Shown here piece after piece: positions 8,155 through 22,050 of a DNA stretch of 59,578 nucleotides. Position numbers and translations under genes: made by a program. Each line of letters opens with the position of its first letter. Position 1 is the stretch's first letter. The stretch is taken from NCBI GenBank assembly GCA_018825335.1, contig JAHJEW010000051.1, positions 1 to 59,578 on the forward strand, given 5' to 3'. Source of the stretch: Patescibacteria group bacterium (lineage in GTDB: Bacteria; Patescibacteriota; Gracilibacteria; UBA1369). Under the pieces are notes generated by a model that saw only the letters and a program-made list of their open reading frames with translations, ran no database searches and was not told where the DNA came from.

Positions 8155-10197
8155 ATGCCAAAAAATACACCGAAACAAGAACAATCCGGAATCTTAAAAG
8201 ACGCCAAAATGCCGCTGCAGCTATGCCGTGGAACCGTCCATAAAATCAACGGCAAAAAAGTCGAAAACTGCTGGGGAAAGCCAATACCGGAAGGCAACTC
8301 CGGCGCGCTGTATATTGGAAAAACGATTATCGAACCAATTTCCACCAGAATAAGAGCGGTTCTAACGGGCAAAGAACCAGGCCCGCAAAACATTTATTCG
8401 GAGGAATTCATTCAAAGCGCGCTGGAAAACCTGGGGCCGCATTTAAGAATTGGAAATAAAATTTGCATTGTGCAGGCGCGTTGTCTTAGCGAAATTTTCA
8501 ACGGCCCCACGGACACGGAAAACGCCCTTACAATAGAGCGGCAACGTGATTTTATCCGGAAAATTGCGAAAAAAATCGGCATAAAAGAGGAGCAACTGGA
8601 ATTTATAGATCTGGAAGATCAGGTGCGCCACTCCCAGCTTTTTTTGGCTGTAAGGATGTCAATAGATCCGGCAACGGGAAAATTTGATCCTGAAATGGCT
8701 TTTGGCGCAGACAGGGACGAGGATGAAAAAAATGAACCGTTCAGATGGCCGGAATCCGTTTCTCTGGACATCGCCAAATGCCTTTATGAAGCATACAAAG
8801 CCCATCCGGAGTTTGCGGACCTGTTCAGGGAAACAATTCCTAAAGGTCTGGCGGGCGACCGGGAAGATCAAAGCGATCAGCAAAACTACTATTCCCTTGT
8901 GGAAATCGCATGCAGAATTGCGGATCTAAAACACGGAACAAGCTTTCAATGCGGCGCCGGCAGGCAGGCGCGCTACGATAAAATCATTGAGGATCTTCGG
9001 AGAGGGGAAAAAGGACAATTCAAAAAATACCGCGAATTGAAGCCAATATTTGATCTATTAAAAGGAGCCACATTTCAAACATTGCACTTCTTCACGGATG
9101 CCGATTACAGAGGAAAAAAACTGCGCAGAACCAGGGCGCGAACCAAAATAGCCGCCATGGCCGCCATTGGTTTAACCACCCTTGGCACGGCTGCATTCCA
9201 CTCATGCACGTCAGAAATGAGGCAGAGGGAAGAGCAGGAACAACTAATGGAGGAAAAAATCCGGGAGGGAACCAGGCATATAAGATTCAGATTCGAAGGT
9301 TTTTTCATGGATGAACAGGAAAATGTAAAAATGACTTTATCGATTGCAAATTCGGTTCTGGGTAGATTGAAGGAACGCTATCAGATGGGCATATTCATGA
9401 ATAGCGAGCTTAAACCTCTGGTGATAGAGTTTCTTCTGGCAAGCACCGGTCTGTTGCAGCAGGCAAATCAGGACGCGGGAGTGGTAAACGAACTGGCCGA
9501 TCTTTTTGTAAAAAAACATTCACTGTTTCTGGCCCAAAAAGGATTGAATACGACGCAACCTTTCGCCAATTTTACGCCGTACATGGACAAAATCAAAGAA
9601 GCTGCGGTCGGCATGGACGATTTTCAGCTCAATACAATTCTTGCCTCACCCAACCCGGGTAATTTCGACGACGTTGAATCAGTAAACGATCTACATCTAA
9701 AAAAAATCGGAAAATTCACACCATCGGTTCAGTACGGATGGACGCAAACTTTATATATATACGAAAAAAACGGGGAAACCCACATCCTGGGCCGCGACAT
9801 GAGTAAAGAAGATCCAAAAACGGTGGACAGGGTTTTTACGGCTAAAGAAGGGCGCGAGCTGGCACAACAATTCCTTAGCGGATTGCGCAAATACGACACT
9901 CTGCAGATAGCCGACTTAAGGTCGACTCTTTCCAACATGTGCTATAACAAATACAACCCCGGACCAAAAGAAAAAAGTGAGCCGGCCGAATCAAATCCGT
10001 ACAGCCCGTACACGTTTCATTACAAAGATTCACTCGGCGAGTTTGATTATTACCTGCGGCAATCTTACTTCATGGACAAAACAATCAATCACTCCATAGA
10101 CATTATACTTGCGCGCCGCCCCGGAGAGTCGCAATATACATACGAAACAGGCATGGAAGTCGCCCGAAAATACTGTAATATCATGAAATACAGATGA
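8155..10197 (+). CDS. hypothetical ~680-aa protein with one central TM segment
   Basis: Long uninterrupted ORF. The track start at 8137 is TTG and the first ATG is at 8155. A hydrophobic segment IAAMAAIGLTTLGTAAF lies mid-protein and a Glu/Gln-rich segment follows it. The stop overlaps the ATG of the TrmB-like gene (ATGA at 10194-10197). No recognisable catalytic motif. Confidence 0.7.
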   Translation: MPKNTPKQEQSGILKDAKMPLQLCRGTVHKINGKKVENCWGKPIPEGNSGALYIGKTIIEPISTRIRAVLTGKEPGPQNIYSEEFIQSALENLGPHLRIGNKICIVQARCLSEIFNGPTDTENALTIERQRDFIRKIAKKIGIKEEQLEFIDLEDQVRHSQLFLAVRMSIDPATGKFDPEMAFGADRDEDEKNEPFRWPESVSLDIAKCLYEAYKAHPEFADLFRETIPKGLAGDREDQSDQQNYYSLVEIACRIADLKHGTSFQCGAGRQARYDKIIEDLRRGEKGQFKKYRELKPIFDLLKGATFQTLHFFTDADYRGKKLRRTRARTKIAAMAAIGLTTLGTAAFHSCTSEMRQREEQEQLMEEKIREGTRHIRFRFEGFFMDEQENVKMTLSIANSVLGRLKERYQMGIFMNSELKPLVIEFLLASTGLLQQANQDAGVVNELADLFVKKHSLFLAQKGLNTTQPFANFTPYMDKIKEAAVGMDDFQLNTILASPNPGNFDDVESVNDLHLKKIGKFTPSVQYGWTQTLYIYEKNGETHILGRDMSKEDPKTVDRVFTAKEGRELAQQFLSGLRKYDTLQIADLRSTLSNMCYNKYNPGPKEKSEPAESNPYSPYTFHYKDSLGEFDYYLRQSYFMDKTINHSIDIILARRPGESQYTYETGMEVARKYCNIMKYR

Positions 10198-10964
10198 CCC
10201 AAAAACAGCAAATAATTCAGCTCTTGCGCAGAATCGGACTCACCGAAAGTGAAGCCGAACTCTATTTTACCGCGCATAAATACCCGAAACTGACCCTCTC
10301 CGAGCTGCAGAAGAAAACCAATTATTCAACAGCCTCGGTGTACAGAGCCTTCGACAATCTTTACAATCTGGGATTTCTAACAGCATCCCATGAAAACTGG
10401 AAGAAAAATATTGAGGCCGTGTCACTGAAAACCATAAGTGAAAAACTGGCCTGCGAGCAGCGAAAACTAAGAAAAATCGAATTAAAATTCAAACAACTGG
10501 ACAGCCTTATTAACTTCTCCCTGGACGGAGACATGGAAGATCCGCTGGAAATCCACACAGACAAAAACAAAGTCGCGGACAGCTATTTTCAGATTTTAAG
10601 TGAAGATGCATCGAACATGCGGGTATTCGGTTCCGCGGAAAGGCTGATAGACATTTTCGGCTCCGATCTGGAGCGCGCCTTTGTGAATATTAGAAGAAAA
10701 AAAGGAATAAAATGCGACGTCGTTTTAACAGAAAGCGGAGATTACGCAAAAGAACTTATGGCTTCCGAAGGCCGCGAACTGCGAAACACGAAAATCAAAG
10801 TCAGCCCCTCGTTGCAGGATACGATGTGTTACATAAGCGGACAAAAAGCCACAATTCTGCAAAAAAACAAAAACGGTGAAGACAGGGCGGTAGTAATTAA
10901 AGACCCTGCGCTGGTTAAAATGCAGGAAAAATTATTCGATTCCCTCTGGGGAAATTCACCTTAA
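10194..10964 (+). CDS. TrmB-family winged-helix transcriptional regulator
   Basis: The N-terminus LLRRIGLTESEAELYFTAHKYPKLTLSELQKKTNYSTASVYRAFDNLYNLGFL matches the TrmB HTH pattern. 256 aa. Translationally coupled to the upstream gene. Confidence 0.65.
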   Translation: MTQKQQIIQLLRRIGLTESEAELYFTAHKYPKLTLSELQKKTNYSTASVYRAFDNLYNLGFLTASHENWKKNIEAVSLKTISEKLACEQRKLRKIELKFKQLDSLINFSLDGDMEDPLEIHTDKNKVADSYFQILSEDASNMRVFGSAERLIDIFGSDLERAFVNIRRKKGIKCDVVLTESGDYAKELMASEGRELRNTKIKVSPSLQDTMCYISGQKATILQKNKNGEDRAVVIKDPALVKMQEKLFDSLWGNSP

Positions 10965-11034
10965 AGGTGAACTTTTTCTCAAATCAATGAGAAAAGCCGC
11001 AGGTTGGGAAGCGCTTTGAATAAAGGAAAAGAGA

Positions 11035-11063
11035 CCGCGGCCGGCGCGCGCGCGGCCATTTTT
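11035..11063 (+). terminator. candidate Rho-independent terminator after the TrmB-like gene
   Basis: GC-only stem (ccgcg 11035-11039 pairs with cgcgg 11051-11055; other GC registers are possible), followed by a run of 5 T at 11059-11063. Confidence 0.3.
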
Positions 11064-11089
11064 GACAAATTCCAAAACCGATCTATTTT
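11062..11089 (+). promoter_or_regulatory. candidate sigma70-type promoter for the five-gene paralog array
   Basis: TTGACA at 11062-11067, a 16-nt spacer, then TATTTT at 11084-11089, about 60 nt upstream of the ATG at 11150. Confidence 0.3.
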
Positions 11090-11107: not shown

Positions 11108-11140
11108 CCGACAAGCCTTGTTGACCGACAACGCTTGTCG
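11108..11140. repeat. boundary hairpin motif, copies 2a and 2b (CCGACAAGCCTTGTTGAC then CGACAACGCTTGTCG)
   Basis: Two adjacent copies lie 10 nt upstream of the ATG of paralog copy 4. Copy 2b is a perfect 6-bp stem with a CGC loop. Confidence 0.7.
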
Positions 11141-11149
11141 CCAAATACC

Positions 11150-12790
11150 ATGAACAAAACCTGCGAAACCTGCGGAGAAAATTTTATCCTCTCCGATCTG
11201 GAAATACGGCAATACAAAAAAAACGACGTTACGCCGCTGCCAATATGCTTTCCCTGCCAGCATAAACACAGGCTTTCATTCCGCAACGAAAGAACCCTAT
11301 ACACAAGAAAATGCGATGGCACGGGAGAAAGTATTATCACCATCTATGCGCCGGACAGCCCATACAAGGTATACAAAAACGAATACTGGTACAGCGACAA
11401 ATGGGATCCAATGGAGTACGGAATGGATTTTGACTTCAACCGACCTTTCTTCGATCAGTTGCGCGAGCTAAATCGCAAAGTGCCAAGAGTGGCTTTAATC
11501 AACTTAAAACACGAAAACAGCGACTACTGCAACATGGCAGTCGGCAACAAAAACTGCTACCTGGTCTTTGGCGGCGACTACGACGAAGACTGTATGTACA
11601 TGACATTAAGCTTTTTCTGCAGGGACTGTCTGGACGCCGACTACAGCAACAAAAACGAACTAACCTACATGGCGGACAACACCATGGACTGCTACGACTG
11701 CCAATATATATGGGATTCAAGAAACTGCACAAACTGCTATTTCAGCACCGATTTAAGCGGGTGCACCGAATGTATTTTCTGTAATAATTTACAGAATAAA
11801 TCCTATTGCATAGAAAATAAACAGTACACAAAAGAAGAATATTTAAGGAAGAAAGCAGAAATTCTGGATGGCAGCTACGCGACGCAAAGGAAAAACTGGG
11901 AAAAATTCAGGCATCTCCGCGAAAGCAGAATTGTAAAATACGCCCACATTATGGCCTCCGAAAACTGCACAGGCGATTATATTAAAAACTCAAAAAACTG
12001 CACCAGCTGTTTTGACTGCAGCAACAGCGAAGACGTGTCCGAATCAGTATTTCTGGAAGGAGCAAAAGACGGCTTTAACATAAGCTTTTTAGGACATAAA
12101 TCCGAACTGACCTACAACTGTATTAGCGTAATAACCTCCAGTAACATTTTCGGCAGCTACTTTATTAGCGACAGTAGCGACATTTTTTACTCCGAAATGT
12201 GCCTAAACAGCCAGGATCTTTTCGGATGCCAAGGCCTGCGCCGCAAAAAATACTGCATCCTAAACAAGCAGTACACCAAAGAAGAGTACCAAAAAATGGT
12301 ACCGAAAATAATTGAGCACATGAAAAAAACAGGAGAATGGGGACGATTCCTGCCAAAAGATTTTTCGGCATTTGCCTATAACGAGGGAACCGGCATGCGT
12401 TATTTCCCGCTGACAAAAGAGCAGGCGCTGCAGCAGGGTTTCCGCTGGAGAGACGAAGATGCCAAATCTTTCACGCCACAAACCTATGTTACTCCGGACA
12501 ACATTAAAGATGTACCGGACAGCATAACATCGGAAGTTTTAGCCTGCACCGATTGTAAAAAGAACTTCAAAATACTCCAGGCGGAGCTCCAGTTTTACAG
12601 GAAACTGAACATACCGGCGCCGCGCACATGCGCCGACTGCAGGCAAAAAGCAAGAAATACCTTAAGAAATCCATACGTCCTCCACCTACGCACCTGCAAA
12701 AAGTGCGCGGCGCCTATCCAGACCGCGTACGCCCCGGGCCGCCCCGAAACCGTATACTGCGAAAAATGCTACCTGAAAGAAGTCTACTAA
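11150..12790 (+). CDS. Cys-rich double zinc-ribbon family paralog, copy 4
   Basis: The track start at 11135 is TTG. The ATG at 11150 gives MNKTCETCGENF, matching the other copies (M.K(T/S)C..C). Full-length homology, ending in RPETVYCEKCYLKEVY*. Confidence 0.9.
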   Translation: MNKTCETCGENFILSDLEIRQYKKNDVTPLPICFPCQHKHRLSFRNERTLYTRKCDGTGESIITIYAPDSPYKVYKNEYWYSDKWDPMEYGMDFDFNRPFFDQLRELNRKVPRVALINLKHENSDYCNMAVGNKNCYLVFGGDYDEDCMYMTLSFFCRDCLDADYSNKNELTYMADNTMDCYDCQYIWDSRNCTNCYFSTDLSGCTECIFCNNLQNKSYCIENKQYTKEEYLRKKAEILDGSYATQRKNWEKFRHLRESRIVKYAHIMASENCTGDYIKNSKNCTSCFDCSNSEDVSESVFLEGAKDGFNISFLGHKSELTYNCISVITSSNIFGSYFISDSSDIFYSEMCLNSQDLFGCQGLRRKKYCILNKQYTKEEYQKMVPKIIEHMKKTGEWGRFLPKDFSAFAYNEGTGMRYFPLTKEQALQQGFRWRDEDAKSFTPQTYVTPDNIKDVPDSITSEVLACTDCKKNFKILQAELQFYRKLNIPAPRTCADCRQKARNTLRNPYVLHLRTCKKCAAPIQTAYAPGRPETVYCEKCYLKEVY

Positions 12791-12797
12791 AAAAACC

Positions 12798-14423
12798 ATG
12801 CAAAAAACCTGCCGCCAGTGCGCAAAACAATTCAAAATCACTCGGGAAGATCTGGAACATCTGGACAAAGTCAGCCCAATAATCGGCGGCCAAAAGCAGC
12901 AAATCCTACCGCCTACCCTCTGCCAGGACTGCCGTAGGCAAAGGCGTCTGGCCTTCAGAAACGAACAATACATCTACCTCCGCAAGTGCGACCTTTGCAA
13001 AACGGATATCATTACTATCTATTCACCGGACAAACCGCTGCCCGTATACTGCAGCAAATGCTGGTGGGGCGACGACTGGGACCCACTTGAATGCGGCCGG
13101 AACTTTGATTTTTCCAGACCTTTTTTCGATCAATTCAAAGAACTGTCAGCAAAAGTCCCCGTGCCGCCCAACATGGTTTTTTCGTCCGAAAACTGCGAAT
13201 ACTGCGGCTTCTGCGTCAACTCCAGAAACAGCTATTTATCCAGCCGCGTCGGTGACAGTGAAGACATCTATTACTCATACCTGGCCGTCGGATCGCAAAA
13301 CTGCACAGACTGCTACAATATCATAAACTGCCAGCTCTGCTACGAATGCATCGATTGCTGGAACTGCTACGCTACCGTTTTCAGTCGTCTTTGCAAAACC
13401 ACCAGTGACTCCGCTTTTTGTTACGATTGCATAGGATGCAAAAACTGTTTCGGATGCTTTGGCCTGCGAAACGCCGAGTACTATTTCTTCAATCAAAAAT
13501 GCAGCAAAGAGGAATATGAAAAGAAGGTGCGCGCCCTGCAGCTTGAAAAGCCGGAAAACCTTGAGCGCGCAAAAGAAATGTTCGAAAAATTCATACTGGA
13601 AAAACCACATCGTGCCACCATAATAAACAACTGCCAAAACGTTTCCGGCGATTTTATTGTCGATTCAAAGGATGCTCACGACTGCTACGACATCGAAAAA
13701 ATCGAATCCGCAAAAAACGTCTGGTCCAGCGAATATTCAAAAGACATTTACGATTGCGATTTCATATACGGCGGCGAAAAATGCTACGAAAACATGTCCA
13801 ACGCCAATAGTAACGGCATTTTATTTTCCGCGGTCGCCATTACCGGCGTAAACGACTGTCTTTACTCCGCATTGGTTTGCAACGGCACCCAAAACTGCTT
13901 TGGCTGCGCATCGCTCAAAAAACAAAAACACTGCATCCTCAACAAACAATACTCAAAGGAAGAGTATGAAAATCTTGTCCCCAAAATTATTGAGCACATG
14001 AAAAAAACAGGCGAATGGGGTGAATTTTTCCCGGCTACGCTTTCCAATTTCGCCTATAACGAAACCGTAGCCCAAAGCTATTTCCCGCTAACAAAAGAGC
14101 AGGCACTCACAAACGGCTTTATGTGGAAAGATAGGGAAACGCAGCAAAAACACGCCGCCGCGGAAAACCTAATAACCTGCAAAACCTGTAATAAACAGTT
14201 CAAACTCGTAGCCGCGGAAATAGAATTCTACAAAAAAATGCACCTGCCGCCCCCCGCAAAATGCCACGACTGCCGCCACGCCGCGCGAGGTGCTCTACGA
14301 AGACCCCGCCGCCTATACCCTCGCACCTGCGACAAATGCCAGGATCCCATACAAACCACATTTGCCCCAACCCGTCCCGAAACCGTATACTGCGAATCGT
14401 GCTACCTAAAAGAAGTTTATTAA
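12798..14423 (+). CDS. Cys-rich double zinc-ribbon family paralog, copy 5 (full Cys complement)
   Basis: 541 aa with about 43 Cys by manual count. Starts 7 nt after copy 4 ends. All family motifs are present. Confidence 0.9.
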   Translation: MQKTCRQCAKQFKITREDLEHLDKVSPIIGGQKQQILPPTLCQDCRRQRRLAFRNEQYIYLRKCDLCKTDIITIYSPDKPLPVYCSKCWWGDDWDPLECGRNFDFSRPFFDQFKELSAKVPVPPNMVFSSENCEYCGFCVNSRNSYLSSRVGDSEDIYYSYLAVGSQNCTDCYNIINCQLCYECIDCWNCYATVFSRLCKTTSDSAFCYDCIGCKNCFGCFGLRNAEYYFFNQKCSKEEYEKKVRALQLEKPENLERAKEMFEKFILEKPHRATIINNCQNVSGDFIVDSKDAHDCYDIEKIESAKNVWSSEYSKDIYDCDFIYGGEKCYENMSNANSNGILFSAVAITGVNDCLYSALVCNGTQNCFGCASLKKQKHCILNKQYSKEEYENLVPKIIEHMKKTGEWGEFFPATLSNFAYNETVAQSYFPLTKEQALTNGFMWKDRETQQKHAAAENLITCKTCNKQFKLVAAEIEFYKKMHLPPPAKCHDCRHAARGALRRPRRLYPRTCDKCQDPIQTTFAPTRPETVYCESCYLKEVY

Positions 14424-14460: not shown

Positions 14461-16137
14461 ATGCAAAAATCCTGCCAAAAATGTAAAACACCGTTTGAAG
14501 TCTCCACATTCGAAAAAGACTTTCTACTTAAAATAAGCCCAAAAATCGGAGAAAAACAGTACATGATCCCGGAGCCGCAAATCTGCCCGGACTGCCGCCT
14601 TGCCGAAAGGACCGTCCAAAGAAACGAGCAAAATTTCTATCACAACAAGTCCGCAATATCAGGAAAACCACTGCTAGCCCTATACGCACCAAATACGCCC
14701 TGGGGCAAAGAGTACAAAGTCTATACCAAGGAAGAATGGAATAGCGACAACTGGGACGGCCTTGATTACGGCAAGAATTTCGATTTCAACAGGCCATTTT
14801 TTGAGCAGTATAAGGAACTGAACGACCAAATCCCAAAAGTGAACATGGTAACTGTAAGCAACGAAAATTCCCCATACACCACAGGCACCGCATATTGCAA
14901 AAATTGCCACCTAATAAACTGCTCGGAAAATTGCGAAGACTGCTATTACGGAAAACTTATTCAGGACTCAAGAGATGTAATAGATTCGGACTTCGTCTAC
15001 GACTCGGAGCTTTTATACCAATGCTTCAACGTGACAAAATGCTACGACTGCAAATACTTATCATACAGCCAAAACTGCTCCGGCTGTTCTTTCTCGGACA
15101 ATTTACGAGGATGCAAAAACTGCTTTCTATGCACAAACCTTGTAAACAAAGAATACCATTTCATGAATAAGCCGCTAAAAAAGGAAGAGTACGAAGCAAA
15201 AGTAAAAGAATTCATGAGCTCAACCGCCAATATCCAAAAGGCAAAAGAGCAATTGAAAAAACTTAGAGAACAGCGCACATACAAATACGCAAACGTCGTA
15301 AATTGCGAAAACTCAACCGGTGATTTCCTTACAAACTGTAAAAACTGCACCGACTGTTACGACGTAAACGACAGCGAAGATTGCAAATACGTCACCGTAG
15401 GAGTAAACGTAAAAGATCTGGTGGACTGCTCAAATATGTATTTAAAGCCGGAATTAAACTATCAAGTCCTTGGTACAATAGAAACATACAATGTTATTTT
15501 CGGAGTGTTCGTCTTTCACAGTCAGAATGTAATGTATAGTCAGTTTTGCTTTAACTCGCAAAATCTTTTTGGATGCAGCGGGCTAAGGCAAAAGAAATAT
15601 TGCATTTTAAACAAGCGGTATTCGCAGGAGGAGTACAATCAACTGGTGCCAAAAATAATTGAGCACATGCAGAAAACGGGTGAATGGGGAAGATTTTTCC
15701 CAATAGAAAGTTCACCCTTCGGATACAACGAAACCGTTGCAAATCAATATTTGCCACTCACAAAAGAAGAAGCATTAAAGCGGGGATACAAATGGAAAGA
15801 GCCCGACATGAAAGAATATAAAGCCCAAAACTGCAATGTCCCGGAAGAAATCGGCCAGGTGAAAGATGACATAATACAGGAAACTCTGGCCTGCAATAAC
15901 TGCTCAAAGAACTACAAAATCATTCCACAGGAACTGAAAAGATTAAGAACAATAGGCTTACCCATACCAACAAAGTGCCCCGACTGCAGACAAATGGAGA
16001 GAATGTCCATGCGCAATCCACGCCGCCTATATGCTCGTACCTGCGACCAATGCGCCGCCCCTATCCAAACCTCATTTGCCCCCTCCCGCCCAGAAACCGT
16101 ATACTGCGAAAAGTGCTATTTGAAAGAAGTTTATTAA
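14461..16137 (+). CDS. Cys-rich double zinc-ribbon family paralog, copy 6
   Basis: 558 aa with family motifs throughout. The second Cys pair set of the N-terminal module is lost (NKSAISGK, KVYTKEEW). Confidence 0.9.
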   Translation: MQKSCQKCKTPFEVSTFEKDFLLKISPKIGEKQYMIPEPQICPDCRLAERTVQRNEQNFYHNKSAISGKPLLALYAPNTPWGKEYKVYTKEEWNSDNWDGLDYGKNFDFNRPFFEQYKELNDQIPKVNMVTVSNENSPYTTGTAYCKNCHLINCSENCEDCYYGKLIQDSRDVIDSDFVYDSELLYQCFNVTKCYDCKYLSYSQNCSGCSFSDNLRGCKNCFLCTNLVNKEYHFMNKPLKKEEYEAKVKEFMSSTANIQKAKEQLKKLREQRTYKYANVVNCENSTGDFLTNCKNCTDCYDVNDSEDCKYVTVGVNVKDLVDCSNMYLKPELNYQVLGTIETYNVIFGVFVFHSQNVMYSQFCFNSQNLFGCSGLRQKKYCILNKRYSQEEYNQLVPKIIEHMQKTGEWGRFFPIESSPFGYNETVANQYLPLTKEEALKRGYKWKEPDMKEYKAQNCNVPEEIGQVKDDIIQETLACNNCSKNYKIIPQELKRLRTIGLPIPTKCPDCRQMERMSMRNPRRLYARTCDQCAAPIQTSFAPSRPETVYCEKCYLKEVY

Positions 16138-16150: not shown

Positions 16151-17809
16151 ATGTCGCATCCAAAACAAATCTGCAAGCAATGCAAAACGCAGTTTGAGGT
16201 TATTCCAAAAGACCTGGAGTTTTACAAGAAAATGAATGTGCCGGCCCCGGCGCATTGTCCAGATTGCAGAGTGCAAATGCGCTTGGCATGGCGTAACGAA
16301 AGAAGGCTTTTTACGCGAAAATGCGACCTGTCCGGCAAACAAACAATCTCTTTCTATCCACAAAATTCTCAATATAAAGTATATGCCCAGGACGTCTGGT
16401 GGTCAGACAAATGGGACGGCAAAGACTACGGCCGCGATTTCGATTTCAACAGACCATTTTTCGACCAGTTCGCAGAGCTTCTTGCAGACGTCCCCCACAT
16501 GGCAATGGTAATTTCACACGGAGAAAACAGCGATTATTGCCCTTACGCCGTTTATTACAAAAACAGCTACATGTGCGTTTCAGGAGTAAAAGGAGAAGAT
16601 ATATATTATTCATTCTGGACCAACGACAGCCGCAGCTGCACCGATTGTTATGCCTGCTTTGAATCCGAACTTTGCTACGAATGCGTTCAATGCATCAACT
16701 TATACAACTCATTTTTCTGTAAAGACTGCGACAATTCAAACGACCTGGCTTTTTGCGTAAATTGCGACGGATGCAAGAACTGCATAGGCTGCTACGGGCT
16801 TAGGCATAAGGAATATTACGTGTTCAATAAAAAGGTTACGCCGCAGGAGTATGAAAAAATCAACAAAGAAATACGCGAAAGTCCGGAGGCGCTTCTGGAA
16901 ATGAAGGCCAAATTTCAGCAACATCTATTAAACTACCCCCAGCGCGCACTCCAGATGGTCAATACAGAAAACTGCACAGGGGACTACCTGCTAAATTGCA
17001 GAAACAGCCATGACTGCTACCTTTCCGAAGGCCTGGAAGACTGCGCCTACATGTGGAATATTCCGGACGGATGCAAAGATTGTATGGATTTAAACTTCTC
17101 TCCAAAAAGTGAACTTACCTATAACAGCATAAGCACGGTCAATGGATCTAATTGCCTTGTCGCCCCTTTCTGCTGGGATACAAAGGATTCATTTTACTCC
17201 TTTCAGTGTTTCTACTCAGGGAATCTGCTTGGTTGTGTTGGATTAAAAAAAGAAAAATATTGCATCTTAAACAAGCAATATTCAAAGGAGGAATACAACA
17301 GGCTGGTGCCAAGAATCATTGAACATATGAAGAAAACAAATGAATGGGGCGAATTTTTCCCGATGGAAATAAGCCCATTTGGTTACAATGAAACAATCGC
17401 GCAGGACTATTTCCCACTTTTAAAACATGAAGTTAAGAAGCGCGGATGGCGCTGGTCGGATGAACAGCCATCGGTACCGAAAGTGGAAAAAACAATAATA
17501 GCGGCTCAAATACCGGCAAACATAAAAGATGTCCCGGACGACATTGTAAATTGGGCCATATTGTGTGAAGAAAGCGGAAAACCGTTCAGAATAATTCCGC
17601 AGGAACTGACATTTTATAGAAAAATGGGATTACCCATTCCGCGCCGCCACCCGAACCTGCGCCACGCGCAAAGGCAGGCGTCGCTAAACCCACGCCATCT
17701 GTTCAACCGAAATTGCGACAAATGCGGCGCGCCCATGCAAACGACCTTCGCCCCCTCCCGCCCAGAAACCGTATACTGCGAAAAGTGTTACCTGAAAGAA
17801 GTATATTAA
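16151..17809 (+). CDS. Cys-rich double zinc-ribbon family paralog, copy 7
   Basis: 552 aa. The N-terminal second site is degenerate (RKCDLSGK, KVYAQDVWW). The C-terminal first site is degenerate (LCEESGK, RRHPNLRH). The tail RPETVYCEKCYLKEVY* is retained. Confidence 0.9.
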   Translation: MSHPKQICKQCKTQFEVIPKDLEFYKKMNVPAPAHCPDCRVQMRLAWRNERRLFTRKCDLSGKQTISFYPQNSQYKVYAQDVWWSDKWDGKDYGRDFDFNRPFFDQFAELLADVPHMAMVISHGENSDYCPYAVYYKNSYMCVSGVKGEDIYYSFWTNDSRSCTDCYACFESELCYECVQCINLYNSFFCKDCDNSNDLAFCVNCDGCKNCIGCYGLRHKEYYVFNKKVTPQEYEKINKEIRESPEALLEMKAKFQQHLLNYPQRALQMVNTENCTGDYLLNCRNSHDCYLSEGLEDCAYMWNIPDGCKDCMDLNFSPKSELTYNSISTVNGSNCLVAPFCWDTKDSFYSFQCFYSGNLLGCVGLKKEKYCILNKQYSKEEYNRLVPRIIEHMKKTNEWGEFFPMEISPFGYNETIAQDYFPLLKHEVKKRGWRWSDEQPSVPKVEKTIIAAQIPANIKDVPDDIVNWAILCEESGKPFRIIPQELTFYRKMGLPIPRRHPNLRHAQRQASLNPRHLFNRNCDKCGAPMQTTFAPSRPETVYCEKCYLKEVY

Positions 17810-17933
17810 AAAAACGCCCCGGAAAGCCTTCCGAAGAGTTTTAACAGGGCGCAGATTACGGATTGTAATCCTTACCTCCACCACCGAAGATGTAATAAAT
17901 ACACCTCAGGACATAATTATACGGGTTGACCGG

Positions 17934-18002
17934 TGGTGGAGGCAAGGGGAGTTGAATCCCTGGTAACAGGATGATAAGCCCGTCTTCGCGCCCGCTGCCC
18001 CC
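17934..18002 (-). ncRNA. tRNA-like / tmRNA-TLD-like element (acceptor stem with G3:U70, T-arm, encoded ACCA; no normal D-arm)
   Basis: Minus-strand RNA: GGGGGCA GCGGGCGCGAAG ACGGG CUUAUCAU CCUGU UACC AGGGA UUCAACU CCCCU UGCCUCC ACCA. The 7-bp acceptor stem pairs fully, with a G:U at 3:70 and discriminator A73. The T-loop UUCAACU is identical to the E. coli tmRNA T-loop as I recall it, and the 5' GAAGACGGG resembles the tmRNA UUCGACGGG motif. Weaknesses: A53:C61 mismatch, a 12-nt D-region and an 8-nt loop. Confidence 0.45.
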
Positions 18003-18076: not shown

Positions 18077-19741
18077 ATGGAAAAAACCTGTAATCAATGC
18101 ACCGCAAAGTTCAAGGTCGACGAAAACGATCTCGCCTTCTACGATAATATCTCGCCCACCTTCGGCAACAAAAAAATCCAAATCCCTCCGCCAACCCTCT
18201 GCCCCAAATGCCGCCTGCAGCGCCGCCATGCTCGCCGCAACGAATACAATTTATACCCGCGTAGCTGTGACCTTTGCAGCAAATCCATAGTTACAATCTA
18301 CCACCCGGCGGCGCCCTTCACCGTCTATTGCAATAATTGCTGGTGGAGCGACAAATGGGAGGGCGCGGACTACGGCATCGACTACGACGAATCCATACCT
18401 TTCTTCGACCAATTCCAAAACCTTCAAAAAAAAGTCCCGCGCATGGCAATCTGGAACCACGCCTGCGAAAACAGTGACTACACAAATCACTCATCCAATC
18501 TAAAAAACTGCTACCTAGCAACCTGCGCGATCTACAGCGAAAACATCTACCACTCGCGCTGGGTAATAAGATGCAAAGACCTCTGCGACTGCTACCAAAT
18601 GATTAGCTCGGAACTTTGTTACGAAACGTCATACACTCATGGATACAAAATCATTAACGGCTATTTTGCGGACAGCCGCGACTGCACCTTTGTTTACGAC
18701 TGCAAAAGCTGCTCAAATTGCTTTATGTGCTGGAATCTTCGTCACAAAGAGTACTGTATAGAAAACAAACAATATTCAAAGGAAGAGTACGAAAAAATTA
18801 TGGCCGGAATAAATATTGGTTCATACAGCCAATATCAAAAATACAAAAAGCAATATCTGGAAATTGTCAGAACCAACGTTATCAAGCAAGGTGCAAGACT
18901 AACCATGTGCGAAAACAGCAGCGGCGAACTCCTATACAAATGTAAAAATGTCCAAGATTCATACGGCTGCGTAGAATCCCGCGATTGCCGTCATTCCCAC
19001 GAAAGCGAAGACCTAAAAGACTGCTACGACACCTGCGAAACTGCGTCCAATTGCGAGCTGCAATATGAAACCAGCGGATGCGATCACTCCAATAATGTCA
19101 TATGCTCAAGTCGTTCCTCCAATGTAAGCGGCGCTTTCTACACCGAAGGATGCAGCAATGGCGGAAACCTCTTTGGCTGTATTGGACTTAACCGGAAAAA
19201 CCACTGCATCCTGAACAAACAATACACAAAAGAAGGGTACCAAAAACTGGCGGCAAAAATCGCCCAAAACATGCAAAAAAACAATGAATGGGGCGAATTT
19301 TTCCCAATTTCAACCTCCCCCTTTGCCTACAACGAAACCACTGCCCATGAAGACTTCCAAATAACAAAAAAACAGGCAAAACAAAACGGCTGGCAATGGC
19401 TGGAAGTCGACCACAAACAATACCTCCTTCAAACCTGCACCCTCCCCGACGACATCAAAGATACGCCGGATTCCATCACCAAAGAAATCCTCGCTTGCCC
19501 ATGCGGCAAAAACTACAAAATCGTCCTACCCGAACTGGAATTTTACAGAAAAATGAACCTGCCAATCCCCCGAAAATGCCCGCAGTGCAGACGAAAAGAC
19601 CGCAAAAAATTGCGTCCGTCCCTTTTCACGCAAACCACAATAAAATGCCAAAAATGCGCCCGGCCAACCATAACCGGCCTAAATCCCGACTACCCGGGCA
19701 TAACCTACTGCGAAAAATGCTATCTTAAAGCGGTGTATTAA
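18077..19741 (+). CDS. Cys-rich double zinc-ribbon family paralog, copy 8 (more divergent core)
   Basis: 554 aa. The N-terminal module is intact (CNQCTAKF..LCPKCRLQRR..RSCDLCSK..VYCNNCWWSDKW). The tail is ITYCEKCYLKAVY*. Confidence 0.9.
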   Translation: MEKTCNQCTAKFKVDENDLAFYDNISPTFGNKKIQIPPPTLCPKCRLQRRHARRNEYNLYPRSCDLCSKSIVTIYHPAAPFTVYCNNCWWSDKWEGADYGIDYDESIPFFDQFQNLQKKVPRMAIWNHACENSDYTNHSSNLKNCYLATCAIYSENIYHSRWVIRCKDLCDCYQMISSELCYETSYTHGYKIINGYFADSRDCTFVYDCKSCSNCFMCWNLRHKEYCIENKQYSKEEYEKIMAGINIGSYSQYQKYKKQYLEIVRTNVIKQGARLTMCENSSGELLYKCKNVQDSYGCVESRDCRHSHESEDLKDCYDTCETASNCELQYETSGCDHSNNVICSSRSSNVSGAFYTEGCSNGGNLFGCIGLNRKNHCILNKQYTKEGYQKLAAKIAQNMQKNNEWGEFFPISTSPFAYNETTAHEDFQITKKQAKQNGWQWLEVDHKQYLLQTCTLPDDIKDTPDSITKEILACPCGKNYKIVLPELEFYRKMNLPIPRKCPQCRRKDRKKLRPSLFTQTTIKCQKCARPTITGLNPDYPGITYCEKCYLKAVY

Positions 19742-19812: not shown

Positions 19813-22050
19813 ATGGAATTCTTGCATGTCATTGTTCCGCAGGGAACGCCGGATAATCCGAAAAAAGAGAACCTGTTTCTCCACTTTTTGAATAACCTCC
19901 ATAACACCGCCAAGGGTAAAATTTTTTCCCTGGAAATGTTCGGCTACAAGCAGTACACATACTTTTTTGTAGGATGCAACGCCGAAGACGTAAAACTGAT
20001 TGAAGGGCTTATATACAGCATTTACCCCGAATGCGAAATTAAACCGCAAAAAGATTACACCACCTATTTAAACGCGCAGACCCACGTAATAAAAGGCACA
20101 TCGCTTCACATGGAAAGAAGCGACATCTACCCGATCCAGACTTTCGAAACATTCGACGTGGACTCACTTTCCGGCATATTCTCGGTGATTTCAAAAATGA
20201 ACCCCAATGACAGGGCCTGGATTCAGATCCTTACCTCACCCCGTACCGACAACTGGATCTACCATTTCAAGCGAACATGGAGAATGAAAATCAATAAAAT
20301 AAAAAGGATTTTTCGTTTGAAGGATTACGTGCGTCTCAAAGGCAAAAAAACATTTCACAAGGAAGAAGACACCTCTTTCGTGACCAAGACGGAAAGCAAC
20401 CCTTTTGAAATCCAGATAAAAATCGGGGCCGTTTCCGGTAATGCCGCCGAAGCCGAAAGGAACGTTCAGGCGCTTGCCAAAGCCTTTTATCAGTTCAATA
20501 AAACTGATGCGAACGGGTTTGTCATGGAAAGAATCAGAGGAGGTGAAAACTTTCTGAACGAATATCGGAGACGAAAAATAAACAGGCCCGCCATAGTCGG
20601 CGCCAACGAACTGGCCACCTTGTATCATTATCCAAATCCGGACCATGTACCCCATGTAGTGCATGTACTGGCCAAAAGGCACGAGCCGCCAAAGAACCTG
20701 CCAACCCAGGGCGAAGGAATTTCCATGTTTGGGATTACAAACTACCACAACACTTTTCAGCAGTTTGGGATCCAGAGAGAAGATCGCAGGCGACACCTTT
20801 ACGTTGTTGGAAAGAGCGGTACCGGTAAGTCGAAACTGCTTGAGTTGCTCATACAAAATGACATCAACGAAGGGCACGGGATAGCGGTCCTTGACCCTCA
20901 CGGTGACCTTGTGGACAACATTATCCGCATGATCCCGGAGCATCGAATTAAAGACGTAATCCTGTTCGACCCCGGCGATACCGAATTCCCGATCGCATTC
21001 AATCCGCTCGAAAAAGTGGACGAAAAATTCAAGATGCAAATAACAATCGGATTCATAGATATCTTTAAAAAACTTTTTGGCGACAACTGGTCAGACAGGC
21101 TGGAACACGTACTTAGGTACACCACTTTGGCGCTTCTGGACTCGCCAAACACATCGGTGCTTTCCATCCTGAAAATGCTTACCGACAAGAATTATCGCCA
21201 AACAATTGTAGCCCGCATTCAGGATTCGGTGGTTAAAAACTTCTGGGTAAACGAATTTGCCGGATGGAGCGAAAAATTCGATGCGGAAGCAATTACGCCG
21301 CTGTTAAACAAAGTCGGCCAACTGGTTTCCACCAACATGATCCGCAATATGATAGGACAGCCGAAGAACAGTTTTGATATTCGCGATGTCATGGATAACC
21401 AGAAAATCCTGCTCATGAAAGTTTCAAAAGGACTTCTCGGAGAGGAAAACTCGCAGCTTATAGGATCGATGATTATTACCAAGATTTACCAGGCCGCCAT
21501 GGCCAGGGCGGATATTAAGGAAGAACAGCGAAAAGATTTCTATTTCTACGTAGACGAATTCCAAAACTTCGCGACCGACACATTTTCGGAAATCCTTTCA
21601 GAAGCCAGAAAATACCATCTTTGCATGACCATTGCGCATCAGTATGTTGGACAGCTTGGCGACGTAATCAAGAAAACGGTTTTCGGTAATGTGGGTTCGA
21701 TAATTAATTTCAGGGTGGGAGCGGAAGATGCGGTTGTGCTGGCCGAGGAATACACGCCGGTATTTAGCGTGCGGGACATTATCAACCTTGGCGTTCGTGA
21801 ATTTTATTTAAAGATGAGTATTGGTGGAGAGCTTAGTGAAGCCTTTTCCGGCCGTACAATGGACATGACTTTACCCGACTACGATCACAGCGCGGAGATT
21901 TTCGAACAGTCGCGGGAAAAATACTGCACGCCAAAAGACAAGGTGGAAGAAATGCTGAAAAAATGGGACGAAGGAAGCGCAGAGCCGCCGCCGAAAGATA
22001 TTAATCAGGTAATAAAACAGGCCGAGGAATTCGAAACTCCGCTAATATAG
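19813..22050 (+). CDS. VirD4/TraD/TrwB-like (type IV coupling protein-like) or HerA-like P-loop ATPase
   Basis: 745 aa. Walker A is YVVGKSGTGKSKLL, followed by AVLDPHGDL. Walker B-like motif is FYFYVDEFQNF, then ARKYHLCMTIAHQ. I did not identify other T4SS components in the window. Confidence 0.65.
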   Translation: MEFLHVIVPQGTPDNPKKENLFLHFLNNLHNTAKGKIFSLEMFGYKQYTYFFVGCNAEDVKLIEGLIYSIYPECEIKPQKDYTTYLNAQTHVIKGTSLHMERSDIYPIQTFETFDVDSLSGIFSVISKMNPNDRAWIQILTSPRTDNWIYHFKRTWRMKINKIKRIFRLKDYVRLKGKKTFHKEEDTSFVTKTESNPFEIQIKIGAVSGNAAEAERNVQALAKAFYQFNKTDANGFVMERIRGGENFLNEYRRRKINRPAIVGANELATLYHYPNPDHVPHVVHVLAKRHEPPKNLPTQGEGISMFGITNYHNTFQQFGIQREDRRRHLYVVGKSGTGKSKLLELLIQNDINEGHGIAVLDPHGDLVDNIIRMIPEHRIKDVILFDPGDTEFPIAFNPLEKVDEKFKMQITIGFIDIFKKLFGDNWSDRLEHVLRYTTLALLDSPNTSVLSILKMLTDKNYRQTIVARIQDSVVKNFWVNEFAGWSEKFDAEAITPLLNKVGQLVSTNMIRNMIGQPKNSFDIRDVMDNQKILLMKVSKGLLGEENSQLIGSMIITKIYQAAMARADIKEEQRKDFYFYVDEFQNFATDTFSEILSEARKYHLCMTIAHQYVGQLGDVIKKTVFGNVGSIINFRVGAEDAVVLAEEYTPVFSVRDIINLGVREFYLKMSIGGELSEAFSGRTMDMTLPDYDHSAEIFEQSREKYCTPKDKVEEMLKKWDEGSAEPPPKDINQVIKQAEEFETPLI

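Follow-up and report, generated by a model that had tools for sequence, protein, structure and literature searches.

The protein encoded at positions 12798..14423 appears to belong to a very large, uncharacterised family of cytoplasmic proteins, restricted to CPR bacteria, in which two pairs of zinc fingers enclose two solenoids carrying a ladder of cysteines, with, in this copy, about four zinc ions in the fingers; we would give this reading a probability of roughly 60%. The gene lies in a window (the whole stretch of DNA analysed) of 59.6 kb, of which six copies of the family occupy 17%.

12798..14423, + strand: focal gene, an intact ORF of 541 aa with 43 Cys (7.9%)

The focal protein has neither a signal peptide nor a hydrophobic segment (maximum 19-aa Kyte–Doolittle value 1.50). 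It is cytoplasmic, with the modular order A-B-B'-A', that is finger pair, solenoid, solenoid and finger pair. A database entry identical to it (P0001) is named 'zinc-ribbon domain containing protein [Patescibacteria group bacterium]'. Self-BLAST of the whole protein found no internal repeat, and the duplications were resolved by segment-wise Smith–Waterman alignment with shuffles and by hhalign, where self-BLAST had failed. In the whole-protein hhalign self-comparison only two off-diagonal matches are significant, one pairing residues 111–260 with 260–403 (E 2e-26) and the other 4–89 with 460–536 (E 3e-21). For the termini, alignment of residues 1–95 with 456–541 scores 165, against 28.3 ± 5.3 for 500 shuffles, none of which scored as high (z = 25.8), and the profile–profile comparison gives E 1.2e-31 over 79 columns. 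For the core, residues 126–245 align with 271–400 at a score of 118 (z = 12.6), with E 3.1e-32 for block 1 against block 2, profile against profile. The initial annotation had proposed, from the letters alone, the same eight-cysteine module at both ends, with two four-cysteine sites each, and a duplicated core, and had named a lack of significant self-similarity between termini or between blocks as the outcome that would count against it; both duplications are significant in the formal repeat analysis, and the terminal motif that it wrote out agrees with the consensus of 24 modules.

The focal copy has two complete Cys4 sets in each terminal module. The four fingers are:

12798..12953, + strand: N-finger 1 (aa 1–52; C5, C8, C42, C45), of zf_Tbcl type
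12954..13082, + strand: N-finger 2 (aa 53–95; C64-x2-C67-x17-C85-x2-C88), of zf_Tbcl_2 or CxxC-x17-CxxC type, with Pfam matches
14169..14297, + strand: C-finger 1 (aa 458–500; C461, C464, C489, C492), zf_Tbcl, with a PF13451 match
14298..14420, + strand: C-finger 2 (aa 501–541; C511-x2-C514-x17-C532-x2-C535), zf_Tbcl_2, with a PF23477 match

When the C-terminal module is scanned alone, it matches PF13451 (zf_Tbcl) at 29.3 bits, above the gathering cutoff of 24, and PF23477 (zf_Tbcl_2) at 30.3 bits, above the cutoff of 27. In the full-length scan of the focal protein, PF13451 scores 24.5 bits at aa 459–497 and PF23477 scores 23.7 bits, below its cutoff of 27. Across 24 modules the two models match 16 and 17, respectively. 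The N-terminal module is assigned to zf_Tbcl because it is homologous to the C-terminal one (E 1e-31); N-finger 1 in particular is homologous, by profile comparison, to aa 458–500, and both modules keep the CxxC-x17-CxxC spacing exactly (64/67/85/88 and 511/514/532/535). Judged by these sequence comparisons, A and A' are homologues, each a treble-clef zinc-finger pair with zf_Tbcl before zf_Tbcl_2, and this assignment replaces the label of zinc ribbon given to the termini earlier. The NCBIfam model TIGR04272 (cxxc_cxxc_Mbark) scores 18.3–21.3 bits in five of the six paralogs of the window, against a cutoff of 36, and has no match in paralog 1; the terminal domain is related to TIGR04272 but is not a member by the NCBI threshold. 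Structural comparison with Foldseek returned 43-residue local matches to phage 'zinc-ribbon domain' proteins at an rmsd of 0.7 Å. PDB sequence searches, whether with the terminal-module profile or with a profile of the six paralogs, returned LIM and C2H2 noise only.

The behaviour of the ligands among 477 homologues is the pattern expected of real sites, in that they are kept or lost as complete sets, with co-occurrence r of 0.62–1.00. In N-finger 1, which carries the Arg-rich helix CRRQRRLAFRNE and a net charge of +6, the four cysteines are 86–97% conserved (r 0.62–0.83). In N-finger 2, C67, C85 and C88 are present in 33% of the homologues and are kept or lost together (r = 1.00). C-finger 1 has a basic helix and a net charge of +5; its C464 and C492 occur in 37% of the homologues, with r 0.99, and at position 489 cysteine alternates with histidine. 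The four cysteines of C-finger 2 are 97–99% conserved, and this finger, which ends in the near-invariant VYCExCYLKEVY, has the highest identity of all segments among the paralogs of the window (68%). N-finger 1 and C-finger 2 are thereby shown to be the constant fingers of the family. The ligand sets of N-finger 2 and C-finger 1 are lost in about half to two-thirds of members, a feature that the initial annotation had missed. [quoted passage not shown]

Both terminal modules match the group of proteins defined by zf_Tbcl (PF13451), zf_Tbcl_2 (PF23477) and TIGR04272, whose described members are for the most part small proteins that stand alone, or fingers arrayed in tandem. Unlike these, the focal family has two finger pairs that bracket a duplicated solenoid of about 350 aa, and half or more of its members have one degenerate finger per module. 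There is also a resemblance to the LIM domain, a double zinc finger with treble-clef-like halves, which likewise packs two Cys4-type fingers in succession into a compact unit. In CRP1 and CRP2 it is the C-terminal LIM half that aligns with the second finger (PDB profile E 3e-4 to 5e-3), and the Pfam LIM model matches seven of 24 modules, although below its gathering threshold (17.3 vs 22.9 bits). LIM, a eukaryotic protein-interaction domain, differs from the terminal module in spacing and in the Arg-rich helix.

Between the fingers, the protein is divided as follows:

13083..13175, + strand: conserved linker 1 (aa 96–126, W-D-x5-G-R-D-F-D-F-x-R-P-F-F-x-Q), leading into the core
13176..13463, + strand: solenoid block 1 (aa 127–222), Cys-rich, with 16 in-register hexads in the hexad table
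13464..13607, + strand: block 1 cap (L-R-N-x-E-Y-Y-F-F-N-x-K-x-S-K-E-E-Y-E) and two helices (aa 223–270)
13608..13913, + strand: solenoid block 2 (aa 271–372), the Cys-poor homologue of block 1 (hhalign E 3e-32)
13914..14117, + strand: block 2 cap and helix (aa 373–404), then a conserved linker (aa 405–440)
14118..14168, + strand: variable linker (aa 441–457), shorter in the focal copy than in the other paralogs

Block 1 runs through its 16 hexads without indels, giving eight twelve-residue units with the consensus [C/v]-x-[ND]-[SC]-[KE]-[ND]-C-Y-x-[SC]-Y-x. Position 1 of the hexad is Cys in 47%, Ser in 13%, Val in 11%, Leu in 8% and Ile in 7%; position 4 is Cys in 42% and Ser in 30%; and position 6 is Asn in 29% and Asp in 25%. 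Autocorrelation of the cysteines is 0.69 at lag 3 and 0.56–0.58 at lags 6, 9 and 12, and that of the profile peaks at lags 12 and 24, giving a repeat unit of 12 residues. The cysteine pairs had been described as spaced by 8–9 residues; the true period is 3/6/12, and spacings of nine were seen because 9 is a multiple of 3. In block 2 the presumed inward positions are instead Ile 24%, Val 19% and Cys 15% at the one, and Ser 35%, Cys 18%, Gly 11% and Ala 8% at the other. As far as the alignments go, B and B' are shown to be homologous repeat domains with hexads paired into 12-residue units, each closing with the cap Y-x-[IF]-[FL]-N-x-x-x-[ST]-K-E-E-Y-E and then a helix.

The segments around the blocks differ widely in conservation. 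In linker 1, where the AlphaFold model has a helix at aa 109–119 (pLDDT >90), D104, F109, F110, Q112, L116 and P121 are invariant or nearly so. The block 1 cap, whose motif recurs where block 2 ends, is followed by modelled helices at aa 237–247 and 252–267, and the helical segment 248–270 is the most variable of the protein (entropy 2.82; 18% identity among the paralogs of the window). The block 2 cap and the linker after it (Y-C-I-L-N-K-Q-Y-S-K-E-E-Y-E-x-L-V-P-K-I-I-E-H-M-x-K-T-G-E-W-G-E-F-F-P...S-P-F-x-Y-N-E-T) are the best-conserved regions outside the fingers, with entropies of 1.15 and 1.38 and paralog identities of 59% and 57%, respectively; N382, Y385 and G408 are invariant. The variable linker (entropy 2.53; 19% paralog identity; pLDDT 66–80) has a 19-column gap in the focal copy relative to its paralogs.

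The full-length AlphaFold model (pLDDT 86.9, pTM 0.87) has short strands every six residues, including DSSP strands with this period at aa 305–336 of block 2, and pLDDT of 68–78 in the solenoid regions; the core-only model (pLDDT 74.5, pTM 0.45) has strands every 12 residues. Foldseek searches of both models against the PDB and BFVD gave no significant match (best E 0.55; best TM ≤0.13 query-normalised and ≤0.37 target-normalised), and all the weak matches are β-solenoids: LpxA, LpxD and GlmU, tailspikes, Qnr and the Tenebrio molitor antifreeze protein TmAFP. With the periodicity of the sequence and of the DSSP strands, these matches suggest that B and B' would fold as narrow β-solenoids, and the repeat or solenoid fold foreseen in the initial annotation is in keeping with this. 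None of 24 cores scanned matched a Pfam model significantly, and the core would merit a new one.

The weak matches have features in common with the core, but none of the known classes accommodates it. TmAFP (PDB 1EZG, PF02420), a Cys-rich β-helix of 12 residues per coil, shares with the core the 12-residue unit and the cysteines or small residues six apart, and is the highest-probability Foldseek match of the core model, although not a significant one (E 1.9, probability 0.33, target TM 0.36); one family member (P0030) has a precomputed PF02420 match. However, TmAFP is secreted, made of T-C-T-x-S-x-x-C-x-x-A-x repeats, held by disulfides and equipped with a T-x-T ice-binding face, whereas the focal family is cytoplasmic, with individually dispensable cysteines and a different consensus. 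None of the 24 cores matches PF02420 at E ≤ 1, and the core cysteine pairs are not co-conserved as an intracoil disulfide in every coil would have them. The Hexapep proteins (PF00132; LpxA, LpxD, GlmU, PglD and γ-carbonic anhydrase), which form left-handed β-helices and dominate the weak Foldseek list of the full-length model, share the strict period of six, in which one hexad position is aliphatic or small and another is small. Their register is [LIV]-G-x-x-[STAV]-x ([LIV]-[GAED]-x2-[STAV]-x in its wider form), i/i+4, and their super-period 18, whereas the core has i/i+3 (C/V/I ... S/C) and 12; the focal family also lacks an acyltransferase context, the Foldseek matches have E ≥ 1.9 and TM ≤0.22 (target-normalised) or ≤0.11 (query-normalised), and no core of the 24 matches PF00132 at E ≤ 1. 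Finally, the pentapeptide-repeat proteins Qnr and MfpA are acidic, DNA-mimicking solenoids, and the core is likewise predicted to be a cytoplasmic, net acidic solenoid, with EfsQnr among its weak structural matches. Their A(D/N)LXX pentads have a period of 5/20, against 6/12 for the core, they have no zinc fingers, and the Pentapeptide models of Pfam match none of the 24 cores. That the core solenoid might mimic DNA is, on this likeness, speculation only.

The many CxxC motifs had suggested a metal-stapled solenoid, in which the core pairs coordinate a row of zinc or iron ions, or Fe–S clusters, that hold the coils together, and the protein would be a scaffold for metal storage, metal sensing or electron transfer. 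The idea that many such motifs mean many metal sites is appealing, and now probably wrong. Block 1 always retains 9–20 cysteines (median 14 in 477 homologues), at an exact three-residue spacing and at apparently inward positions, so that four thiols could be available per 12-residue unit; CPR bacteria are mostly anaerobes, in which free thiols or Fe–S clusters are plausible. Yet the presence of one core cysteine is statistically independent of that of another (mean r 0.017, maximum 0.42, over 253 pairs in 477 homologues), whereas the finger ligands of the same proteins reach r 1.00. The cysteines are replaced one by one, by Ser, Val, Leu, Ile, Met or Thr, and so by bulky hydrophobic residues and not by ligand residues alone. 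Block 2, where the count runs from 1 to 18 per protein and a single cysteine can suffice, has Ile or Val and Ser, Gly or Ala at the corresponding hexad positions, which are presumed to point inward. Pfam and NCBIfam gave no match to a ferredoxin, radical-SAM or other Fe–S family, and the CxxCxxC motifs are accordingly not classed as Fe–S or ferredoxin-like. We therefore consider metal stapling of the core quite unlikely. Judging by the periodicity and by the substitutions seen, positions 1 and 4 of the hexad probably point inward, and the cysteines of block 1 would then pack the interior as a Cys/Ser ladder instead of making up separate metal sites. Read as a packing ladder, block 1 leads to the prediction of about four zinc ions per focal protein, all in the fingers. 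The last unit of block 1 (C211-x2-C214-x2-C217-x2-C220) is nevertheless 76–94% conserved, and its 214–217 pair gives the only notable correlation in the core (r 0.42); together with the richness of block 1 in cysteine throughout the family, this leaves room for a metal or redox role of that block.

The family, whose length and architecture hardly vary, comprises at least 2,510 clusters at 50% identity and has been observed in CPR bacteria only. In 59 of 78 genome loci there are 2–10 tandem copies. Besides the focal gene, the second of a tandem array, the window contains:

2824..4497, + strand: sixth paralog, 557 aa, 43% identical to the focal copy; separate from the array and 6.6 kb upstream of it
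11135..12790, + strand: paralog 1 of the tandem array, 551 aa, 40% identical and of the same architecture
14461..16137, + strand: paralog 3, 558 aa, 41% identical
16151..17809, + strand: paralog 4, 552 aa, 46% identical
18077..19741, + strand: paralog 5, 554 aa, 41% identical

Paralog 3 has lost the cysteine set of N-finger 2, with C64 replaced by Ser, and C-finger 1 of paralog 4 is without its cysteine ligands. The predicted ORF of paralog 1 begins with TTG, and its true start is likely the Met of MNKTC, a few codons further on. Comparison of genomes revealed no positional orthology among array members, all pairs being about 40–50% identical. Natural split forms exist in which core-only genes (~299–311 aa), opened by the helix of linker 1, and finger-only genes (92–105 aa) stand side by side.

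No published description of the family turned up in literature searches that covered its Pfam names, its occurrence in CPR bacteria and the fold, and the earlier remark that no described protein has such a layout agrees with these and with the Pfam (core) and PDB searches. The CPR, or Patescibacteria, make up a large share of bacterial diversity and most of their lineage-specific proteins are functionally uncharacterised; this family is among the larger of these, and a genome of about 1 Mb can hold up to ten copies per array. It is experimentally tractable, with recognised zinc-finger termini, an unmodelled Cys/Ser-ladder core and a linkage to TrmB-like and ATPase genes. Two other identities were considered and rejected. 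A phage or mobile-element origin finds no match in 50,697 phage records and one partial match in IMG/VR, and the neighbours are housekeeping genes. The Cys-rich proteins of the Peribacteria genome paper, a candidate because of the figures '14-gene cluster, 7.2% Cys, 1,655', are different proteins according to Table S4, large and extracellular (580–3,860 aa).

The array is flanked by a putative regulator, directly upstream, and by an ATPase:

10194..10964, + strand: TrmB-family HTH regulator, 256 aa (PF01978, E 3e-8)
19813..22050, + strand: soluble VirD4/TraG/TrwB-like P-loop ATPase, 745 aa (PF02534, E 7e-12; PF10412, E 4e-9)

TrmB-like genes occur in or beside arrays in 35 of the 78 genome loci. 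The ATPase gene starts 71 nt downstream of the last paralog; its product has a Walker A motif (GKSGTGKS) at residue 333 and no transmembrane segment (maximum Kyte–Doolittle value 0.99). Of 48 eligible loci, 16 have an orthologue of it no more than 3 kb from where the array ends; identity across genomes is 52–72% for the ATPase, against 40–45% for the family paralogs. Viewed reciprocally, eight of the 13 loci whose ATPase is ≥50% identical also have family members in the vicinity, several others being short or truncated contigs, and split forms also flank ATPases that are only 41% identical. A further 67 more distant soluble VirD4-like loci (33–46% identity) mostly lack the family and mostly adjoin a sigma-like HTH gene and topA. 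The association of array and ATPase is only partial, and some of the adjacency could be inherited synteny. The family is genetically linked to a type of orphan, soluble VirD4-like ATPase whose function in Patescibacteria is recognised in the literature as an open question (PMC12102498).

With low confidence, we propose that the two basic finger pairs, with their Arg-rich helices and net charge of +3 to +6, may tether the protein to a polyanion, for which nucleic acid is the most plausible candidate, while the rigid, acidic, aromatic-rich solenoids (net charge of the blocks –5 and –8) would bear surfaces specific to each paralog. The tandem paralogs might then be a panel of adaptors or recognition modules that works with the downstream soluble VirD4/FtsK-HerA-type ATPase under TrmB-like regulators. 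A stronger version of this, which we regard as unlikely, is an undescribed CPR-specific system in which five to ten or more zinc-finger-anchored solenoid adaptors target an exapted VirD4/FtsK-type translocase, together with a new Cys-ladder fold. If this were true, each adaptor, cytoplasmic and with a surface specific to its paralog, would load the soluble translocase onto certain nucleic acids or proteins, or direct it to them, as might happen when DNA is taken up or exchanged with a host, and the ladder of block 1 would be a new way to build, in the cytoplasm, a very narrow β-helix of 12 residues per coil without disulfides or metals.

The same gene order might instead mean that the paralogs are effectors or cargo, passed by the VirD4-like ATPase to a type IV secretion system or pilus and so into the host of the episymbiont. 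In favour are the ATPase gene, which follows directly on the same strand, the strong diversification and multiple copies of a family confined to CPR lineages that depend on a host, and the near-invariance of its C-terminal ~12 residues. On the other side, tightly folded proteins of the zinc-finger and solenoid kind make poor substrates for secretion. The ATPase lacks the transmembrane anchor of canonical coupling proteins, and no T4SS channel gene was seen in the window. Although type IV secretion is widespread in Patescibacteria, most of their VirD4-like genes are orphans, with 148 of 5,713 T4CP homologues near virB4, and exaptation to other roles has been suggested (PMC12102498). More distant orthologues of the ATPase adjoin topA and a sigma-like gene, a setting suggestive of a housekeeping role related to DNA. 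Export of the paralogs thus has a small chance of being right.

Another reading takes the array for a panel of sensors, whose variable solenoid surfaces would detect invader molecules in phage defence or other conflict while the ATPase and HTH proteins execute and regulate the response. Defence systems commonly couple repeat-domain sensors to NTPases, and a tandem array whose paralogs diverge strongly but keep a conserved scaffold, and whose NTPase partner is conserved, would fit; in PADLOC the ATPase matches the mad8 model (E 2e-12) and, weakly, HerA models. The focal protein, however, matches no model in the PADLOC-DB search and is not assigned to a defence system. The paralogs are ancient (~40–45% identical) and not recently expanded, with no positional orthology or sign of rapid turnover, the neighbourhood contains no nuclease, toxin or other effector domain, and the other genes around the array are housekeeping genes. 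We give the sensor reading a slim chance and return to the adaptor panel as the preferred, if tentative, account of function.

Apart from its protein-coding genes, the window has two tRNAs only in an Rfam scan. The scan of the array for promoters and terminators returned no more sites than shuffled sequences did and is therefore uninformative. A promoter-like site (10/12) is present at 11062–11089, just upstream of the first paralog.

The focal gene (12798-14423, + strand) is intact and encodes a protein of 541 residues, 43 of which are cysteine (7.9%); residue numbers below refer to this copy. It is the second member of a same-strand tandem array of five paralogs. The five other copies in the window are 40-46% identical to it, with an architecture common to all. 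The copies, and two neighbours of the array, are as follows.

2824-4497, sixth copy, outside the array
10194-10964, TrmB-family HTH regulator
11135-12790, + strand, paralog 1, tandem array
12798-14423, + strand, paralog 2 (focal), tandem array
14461-16137, + strand, paralog 3, tandem array
16151-17809, + strand, paralog 4, tandem array
18077-19741, + strand, paralog 5, tandem array
19813-22050, + strand, VirD4/TraG/TrwB-like P-loop ATPase

Paralog 1 is listed from a TTG start at 11135 (MSPNTMNKTC...; window 11135-11150), and alignment to the other copies suggests that its true start is the internal methionine of MNKTC. A sigma-70-like site (10/12, 11062-11089) lies upstream of it, and there is a terminator-like hairpin (10955-10971) after the TrmB-like gene; sites of both kinds are no more frequent than in shuffles. 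The sole long gap within the array (267 nt, 17810-18076) separates paralogs 4 and 5, the other gaps being 7-37 nt. Many related arrays have gaps of ~700-900 nt that contain an antisense TrmB-like gene, for which the window gap is too short.

The initial annotation held that the two termini are homologous and that the core between them is duplicated, and both proposals are borne out. Residues 1-95 align with 456-541 at a Smith-Waterman score of 165, against 28.3 +/- 5.3 for 500 shuffles (z = 25.8), and residues 126-245 align with 271-400 at a score of 118 (z = 12.6). Profile comparison using 92 homologues gives E-values of 1.2e-31 for the termini and 3.1e-32 for the core blocks, and in a comparison of the whole protein with itself the only significant pairs are 111-260/260-403 and 4-89/460-536. 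From these two self-similarities the domain order is read as A-B-B'-A', where A and A' are the N- and C-terminal modules and B and B' are blocks 1 and 2 of the core. This order is not what one tandem duplication of A-B would yield.

Each terminal module had been credited with eight cysteines in two Cys4 sets, and this holds for both (N-fingers 1 and 2, residues 1-52 and 53-95; C-fingers 1 and 2, residues 458-500 and 501-541). Scanned alone, the C-terminal module matches zf_Tbcl (PF13451; 29.3 bits, gathering threshold 24) and zf_Tbcl_2 (PF23477; 30.3 bits, threshold 27); 16 and 17, respectively, of the 24 modules tested match these models. Finger 2 of both modules has the exact CxxC-x17-CxxC spacing (64/67/85/88 and 511/514/532/535) of a domain found by ICP-MS to bind zinc in small proteins of Methanosarcina mazei (PMC12704099). 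The NCBI model of that domain, TIGR04272, scores under its cutoff for the proteins considered here. The C-terminal half of LIM domains resembles finger 2 of each module, and the modelled fingers fit phage 'zinc-ribbon domain' proteins locally (43 residues, rmsd 0.7 Å).

Conservation of the putative ligands was followed in 477 diverse full-length homologues. C67, C85 and C88 of N-finger 2 occur in 33% of them and are always kept or lost jointly (r = 1.00). C464 and C492 of C-finger 1 co-occur at r 0.99, with position 489 alternating between Cys and His; C8, C42 and C45 of N-finger 1 co-occur at r 0.62-0.83; and C511, C514, C532 and C535 of C-finger 2 are 97-99% conserved. The finger ligands thus behave as real sites would, and on this pattern N-finger 1 and C-finger 2 are retained throughout the family (the focal protein and its homologues), whereas N-finger 2 and C-finger 1 can be dispensed with. 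In the focal copy all four fingers have their ligands, and its chain would bind about four zinc ions, all in the fingers. The finger segments are basic (net charges +6, +5 and +3), with Arg-rich helices such as C-R-R-Q-R-R-L-A-F-R-N-E.

Residues 127-222 constitute 16 hexads with no insertions or deletions across the family. In block 1, hexad position 1 is C (47%), S (13%), V (11%), L (8%) or I (7%), position 4 is C (42%) or S (30%), and position 6 is N (29%) or D (25%); positions 2, 3 and 5 are aromatic or charged, variability being greatest at position 2. Autocorrelation of the core cysteines is maximal at lag 3 (0.69), and the 8-9 residue spacing of Cys pairs described earlier is not borne out, being a by-product of this 3-residue period. 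Autocorrelation of the core profile peaks at lags 12 and 24, and therefore defines a 12-residue unit, [C/v]-x-[ND]-[SC]-[KE]-[ND]-C-Y-x-[SC]-Y-x, of which there are ~8 repeats per block. A conserved cap, Y-x-[IF]-[FL]-N-x-x-x-[ST]-K-E-E-Y-E, closes both blocks and leads into a helix.

An AlphaFold2 model of the full-length protein (92-sequence alignment) is confident overall (pLDDT 86.9, pTM 0.87), with moderate confidence (68-78) in the repeat regions, where short strands recur every six residues. A core-only model (24 sequences) is weaker (pLDDT 74.5, pTM 0.45) and has strands every 12 residues. Foldseek finds no significant neighbour of either in the PDB (best E 1.9 for the full model, 0.55 for the core; TM at most 0.13 query-normalised and at most 0.37 target-normalised, the latter for TmAFP). 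The weak matches are nearly all beta-solenoids, and for the core-only model all of them are: LpxA, LpxD, GlmU, PglD and gamma-carbonic anhydrase for the full model, and AlgE6, phage tailspikes, pectate lyases, EfsQnr, tubulin cofactor C and TmAFP, an antifreeze protein with 12-residue coils, for the core. The core matches no Pfam model; with 24 cores, Hexapep, Pentapeptide and AFP gave nothing at E <= 1. The suggestion of a duplicated repeat or solenoid core is therefore supported by the periodicities, the modelled strands and the type of weak match, and our conclusion is that the core is probably a duplicated beta-solenoid, from a sequence family with no existing model. Its coil length (probably 12 residues) and handedness we infer from periodicity and substitution patterns.

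It had also been proposed that the core is stapled by metal. Three lines of evidence argue against discrete, obligatory metal sites. Firstly, among the variable core Cys columns of the same 477 proteins (253 pairs), the presence of one cysteine hardly correlates with that of another (mean 0.017, maximum 0.42), against values of up to r = 1.00 for finger ligand sets. Secondly, the residues that replace the cysteines (S, V, L, I, M and T) are suited to packing and are not alternative ligands. Thirdly, block 2 is homologous to block 1 (E 3e-32) with hexad registers aligned, and is poor in cysteine: position 1 is I (24%), V (19%) or C (15%), position 4 is S (35%), C (18%), G (11%) or A (8%), and its Cys count ranges from 1 to 18. 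Most simply, positions 1 and 4 would point into a narrow solenoid, and block 1 would fill them with a Cys/Ser ladder, the solenoid then being packed with these residues. Block 1 never has fewer than nine cysteines in the family, and conservation of its final unit, C211-x2-C214-x2-C217-x2-C220, stands at 76-94%; part of block 1 may therefore have a metal or redox role, while a metal-stapled or Fe-S scaffold for the core as a whole seems improbable.

A word-indexed search gave more than 7,155 matches; the named ones are all from Patescibacteria and are labelled 'hypothetical' or 'zinc-ribbon domain containing'. In an exhaustive search of 50%-identity representatives, a threshold of E <= 1e-30 gave 2,510 clusters and one of E <= 1e-10 gave 4,136. 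Among the best 150 clusters, lengths are nearly always 517-601 residues (one is of 808), and with a single exception the profile is matched over about its full length. Relatives are encoded by 586 stretches in 185,579 reference genomes. The best 78 of these loci are all from MAGs, and those with a named lineage are all CPR, that is, Patescibacteria-type ultra-small bacteria (Peribacteria/Peregrinibacteria, Gracilibacteria, Abawacabacteria and a few Paceibacterota). Among 50,697 phage records there is no member of the family, and IMG/VR has one partial match. Tandem arrays are the rule: 59 of the 78 loci have 2-10 copies within +/-10 kb, nearly always on one strand. At about 40-50% identity, copies are equally divergent within and between genomes, and array copies show no positional orthology across genomes.

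The initial annotation knew of no described bacterial cytoplasmic protein with this layout, and none came to light here; literature searches gave no paper on the family. The Cys-rich proteins of Ca. Peribacter riflensis are other proteins, large and extracellular. The fingers belong to known domain families, and the putative solenoid to a known fold class. The following seem not to have been described before: the 12-residue unit with its Cys ladder, the domain layout A-B-B'-A', an expansion on this scale in minimal genomes, and linkage to orphan VirD4-like ATPases.

The family also occurs in split form. Core-only genes (299-311 residues, one of 335) cover profile positions ~108-410, and adjoin double-finger genes of 92-105 residues, some overlapping by 4 nt. 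Both forms lie beside soluble VirD4-like ATPases, including some 41% identical to that of the window. Split-form genes at metagenome loci retrieved with the window ATPase are listed here.

L083: 2120-3055
L091: 5099-6019 and 6016-6333, - strand
L093: 2662-3582 and 3579-3887, - strand
L097: 1303-2235, 2285-2563, 2827-3756 and 3857-4864
L087: 2427-3359 and 3849-4748

Finger module and solenoid core are therefore separable units that are genetically kept together, and different architectures of the family share the association with the ATPase.

A TrmB-family regulator (~255 residues) is present in 35 of the 78 loci, usually on the opposite strand and within or just upstream of the array. The ATPase (~747 residues) lies at most 3 kb from the array end in 16 of the 48 loci that extend far enough to be scored, and in 10 of these it adjoins the array on the same strand. 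Its identity across genomes is 52-72%, the paralogs being much less conserved. The window ATPase has a Walker A motif and no transmembrane segment; its N-terminal region of ~310 residues has no Pfam match. In the reciprocal test, on 80 metagenome loci (L080-L159), close orthologues of the ATPase (at least 50% identity) had family members nearby in 8 of 13 cases, several of the other five being short or truncated contigs, whereas distant homologues (33-46% identity) did so in only 4 of 67. The ATPase thus has a wider distribution than the family, and inherited synteny may explain part of their linkage.

The distant homologues adjoin a gene for a sigma-70-region-4-like HTH protein (~351 residues; 39 loci) and topoisomerase I (18 loci), a hint that their role is in DNA-related housekeeping and not in secretion. 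A 2025 survey counted 5,713 VirD4-like genes in Patescibacteria, 148 of them near virB4, and its authors consider that these genes may be exapted to other functions (PMC12102498). That the family is secreted T4SS cargo, a reading suggested by the VirD4-like neighbour, is thus unlikely. A panel of defence sensors is about equally unlikely. With low confidence, we put forward a scheme in which the basic finger pairs of the two termini would bind a polyanion, most likely nucleic acid, and the acidic, aromatic-rich solenoids (net -5 and -8) might offer rigid, paralog-specific surfaces. The array could then be a panel of adaptors for the soluble VirD4/FtsK-HerA-type ATPase, under TrmB-like control.

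Four large ORFs flanking the array have no Pfam match: 6493-8103 (-), 8137-10197 (+), 22068-23822 (-) and 752-2113 (-), of 536, 686, 584 and 453 residues. The 686-residue ORF shares 4 nt with the start of the TrmB-like gene. A PADLOC scan of the 536-, 686- and 584-residue ORFs gave no match.

The remaining window is ordinary chromosome (UvrD, PPDK, glutamate dehydrogenase, PBP1, DnaJ, NAD kinase). A bacterial alpha-2-macroglobulin of 2,119 residues (38543-44902, -; MG2, bait region, TED, bMG10 and Big_5) is encoded in this small CPR genome. A 1,628-residue protein (52652-57538, +) has as its sole Pfam match S-layer homology domains near the N-terminus, with ~1,400 residues beyond. The ORF6N domain binds DNA and is typical of phages and mobile elements; a gene for an ORF6N-domain protein (50862-51641, -; PF10543, E 9e-27) lies ~150 nt from tRNA-Glu (50635-50710), and its 5' end is overlapped by an opposite-strand ORF of 223 residues (51501-52172).
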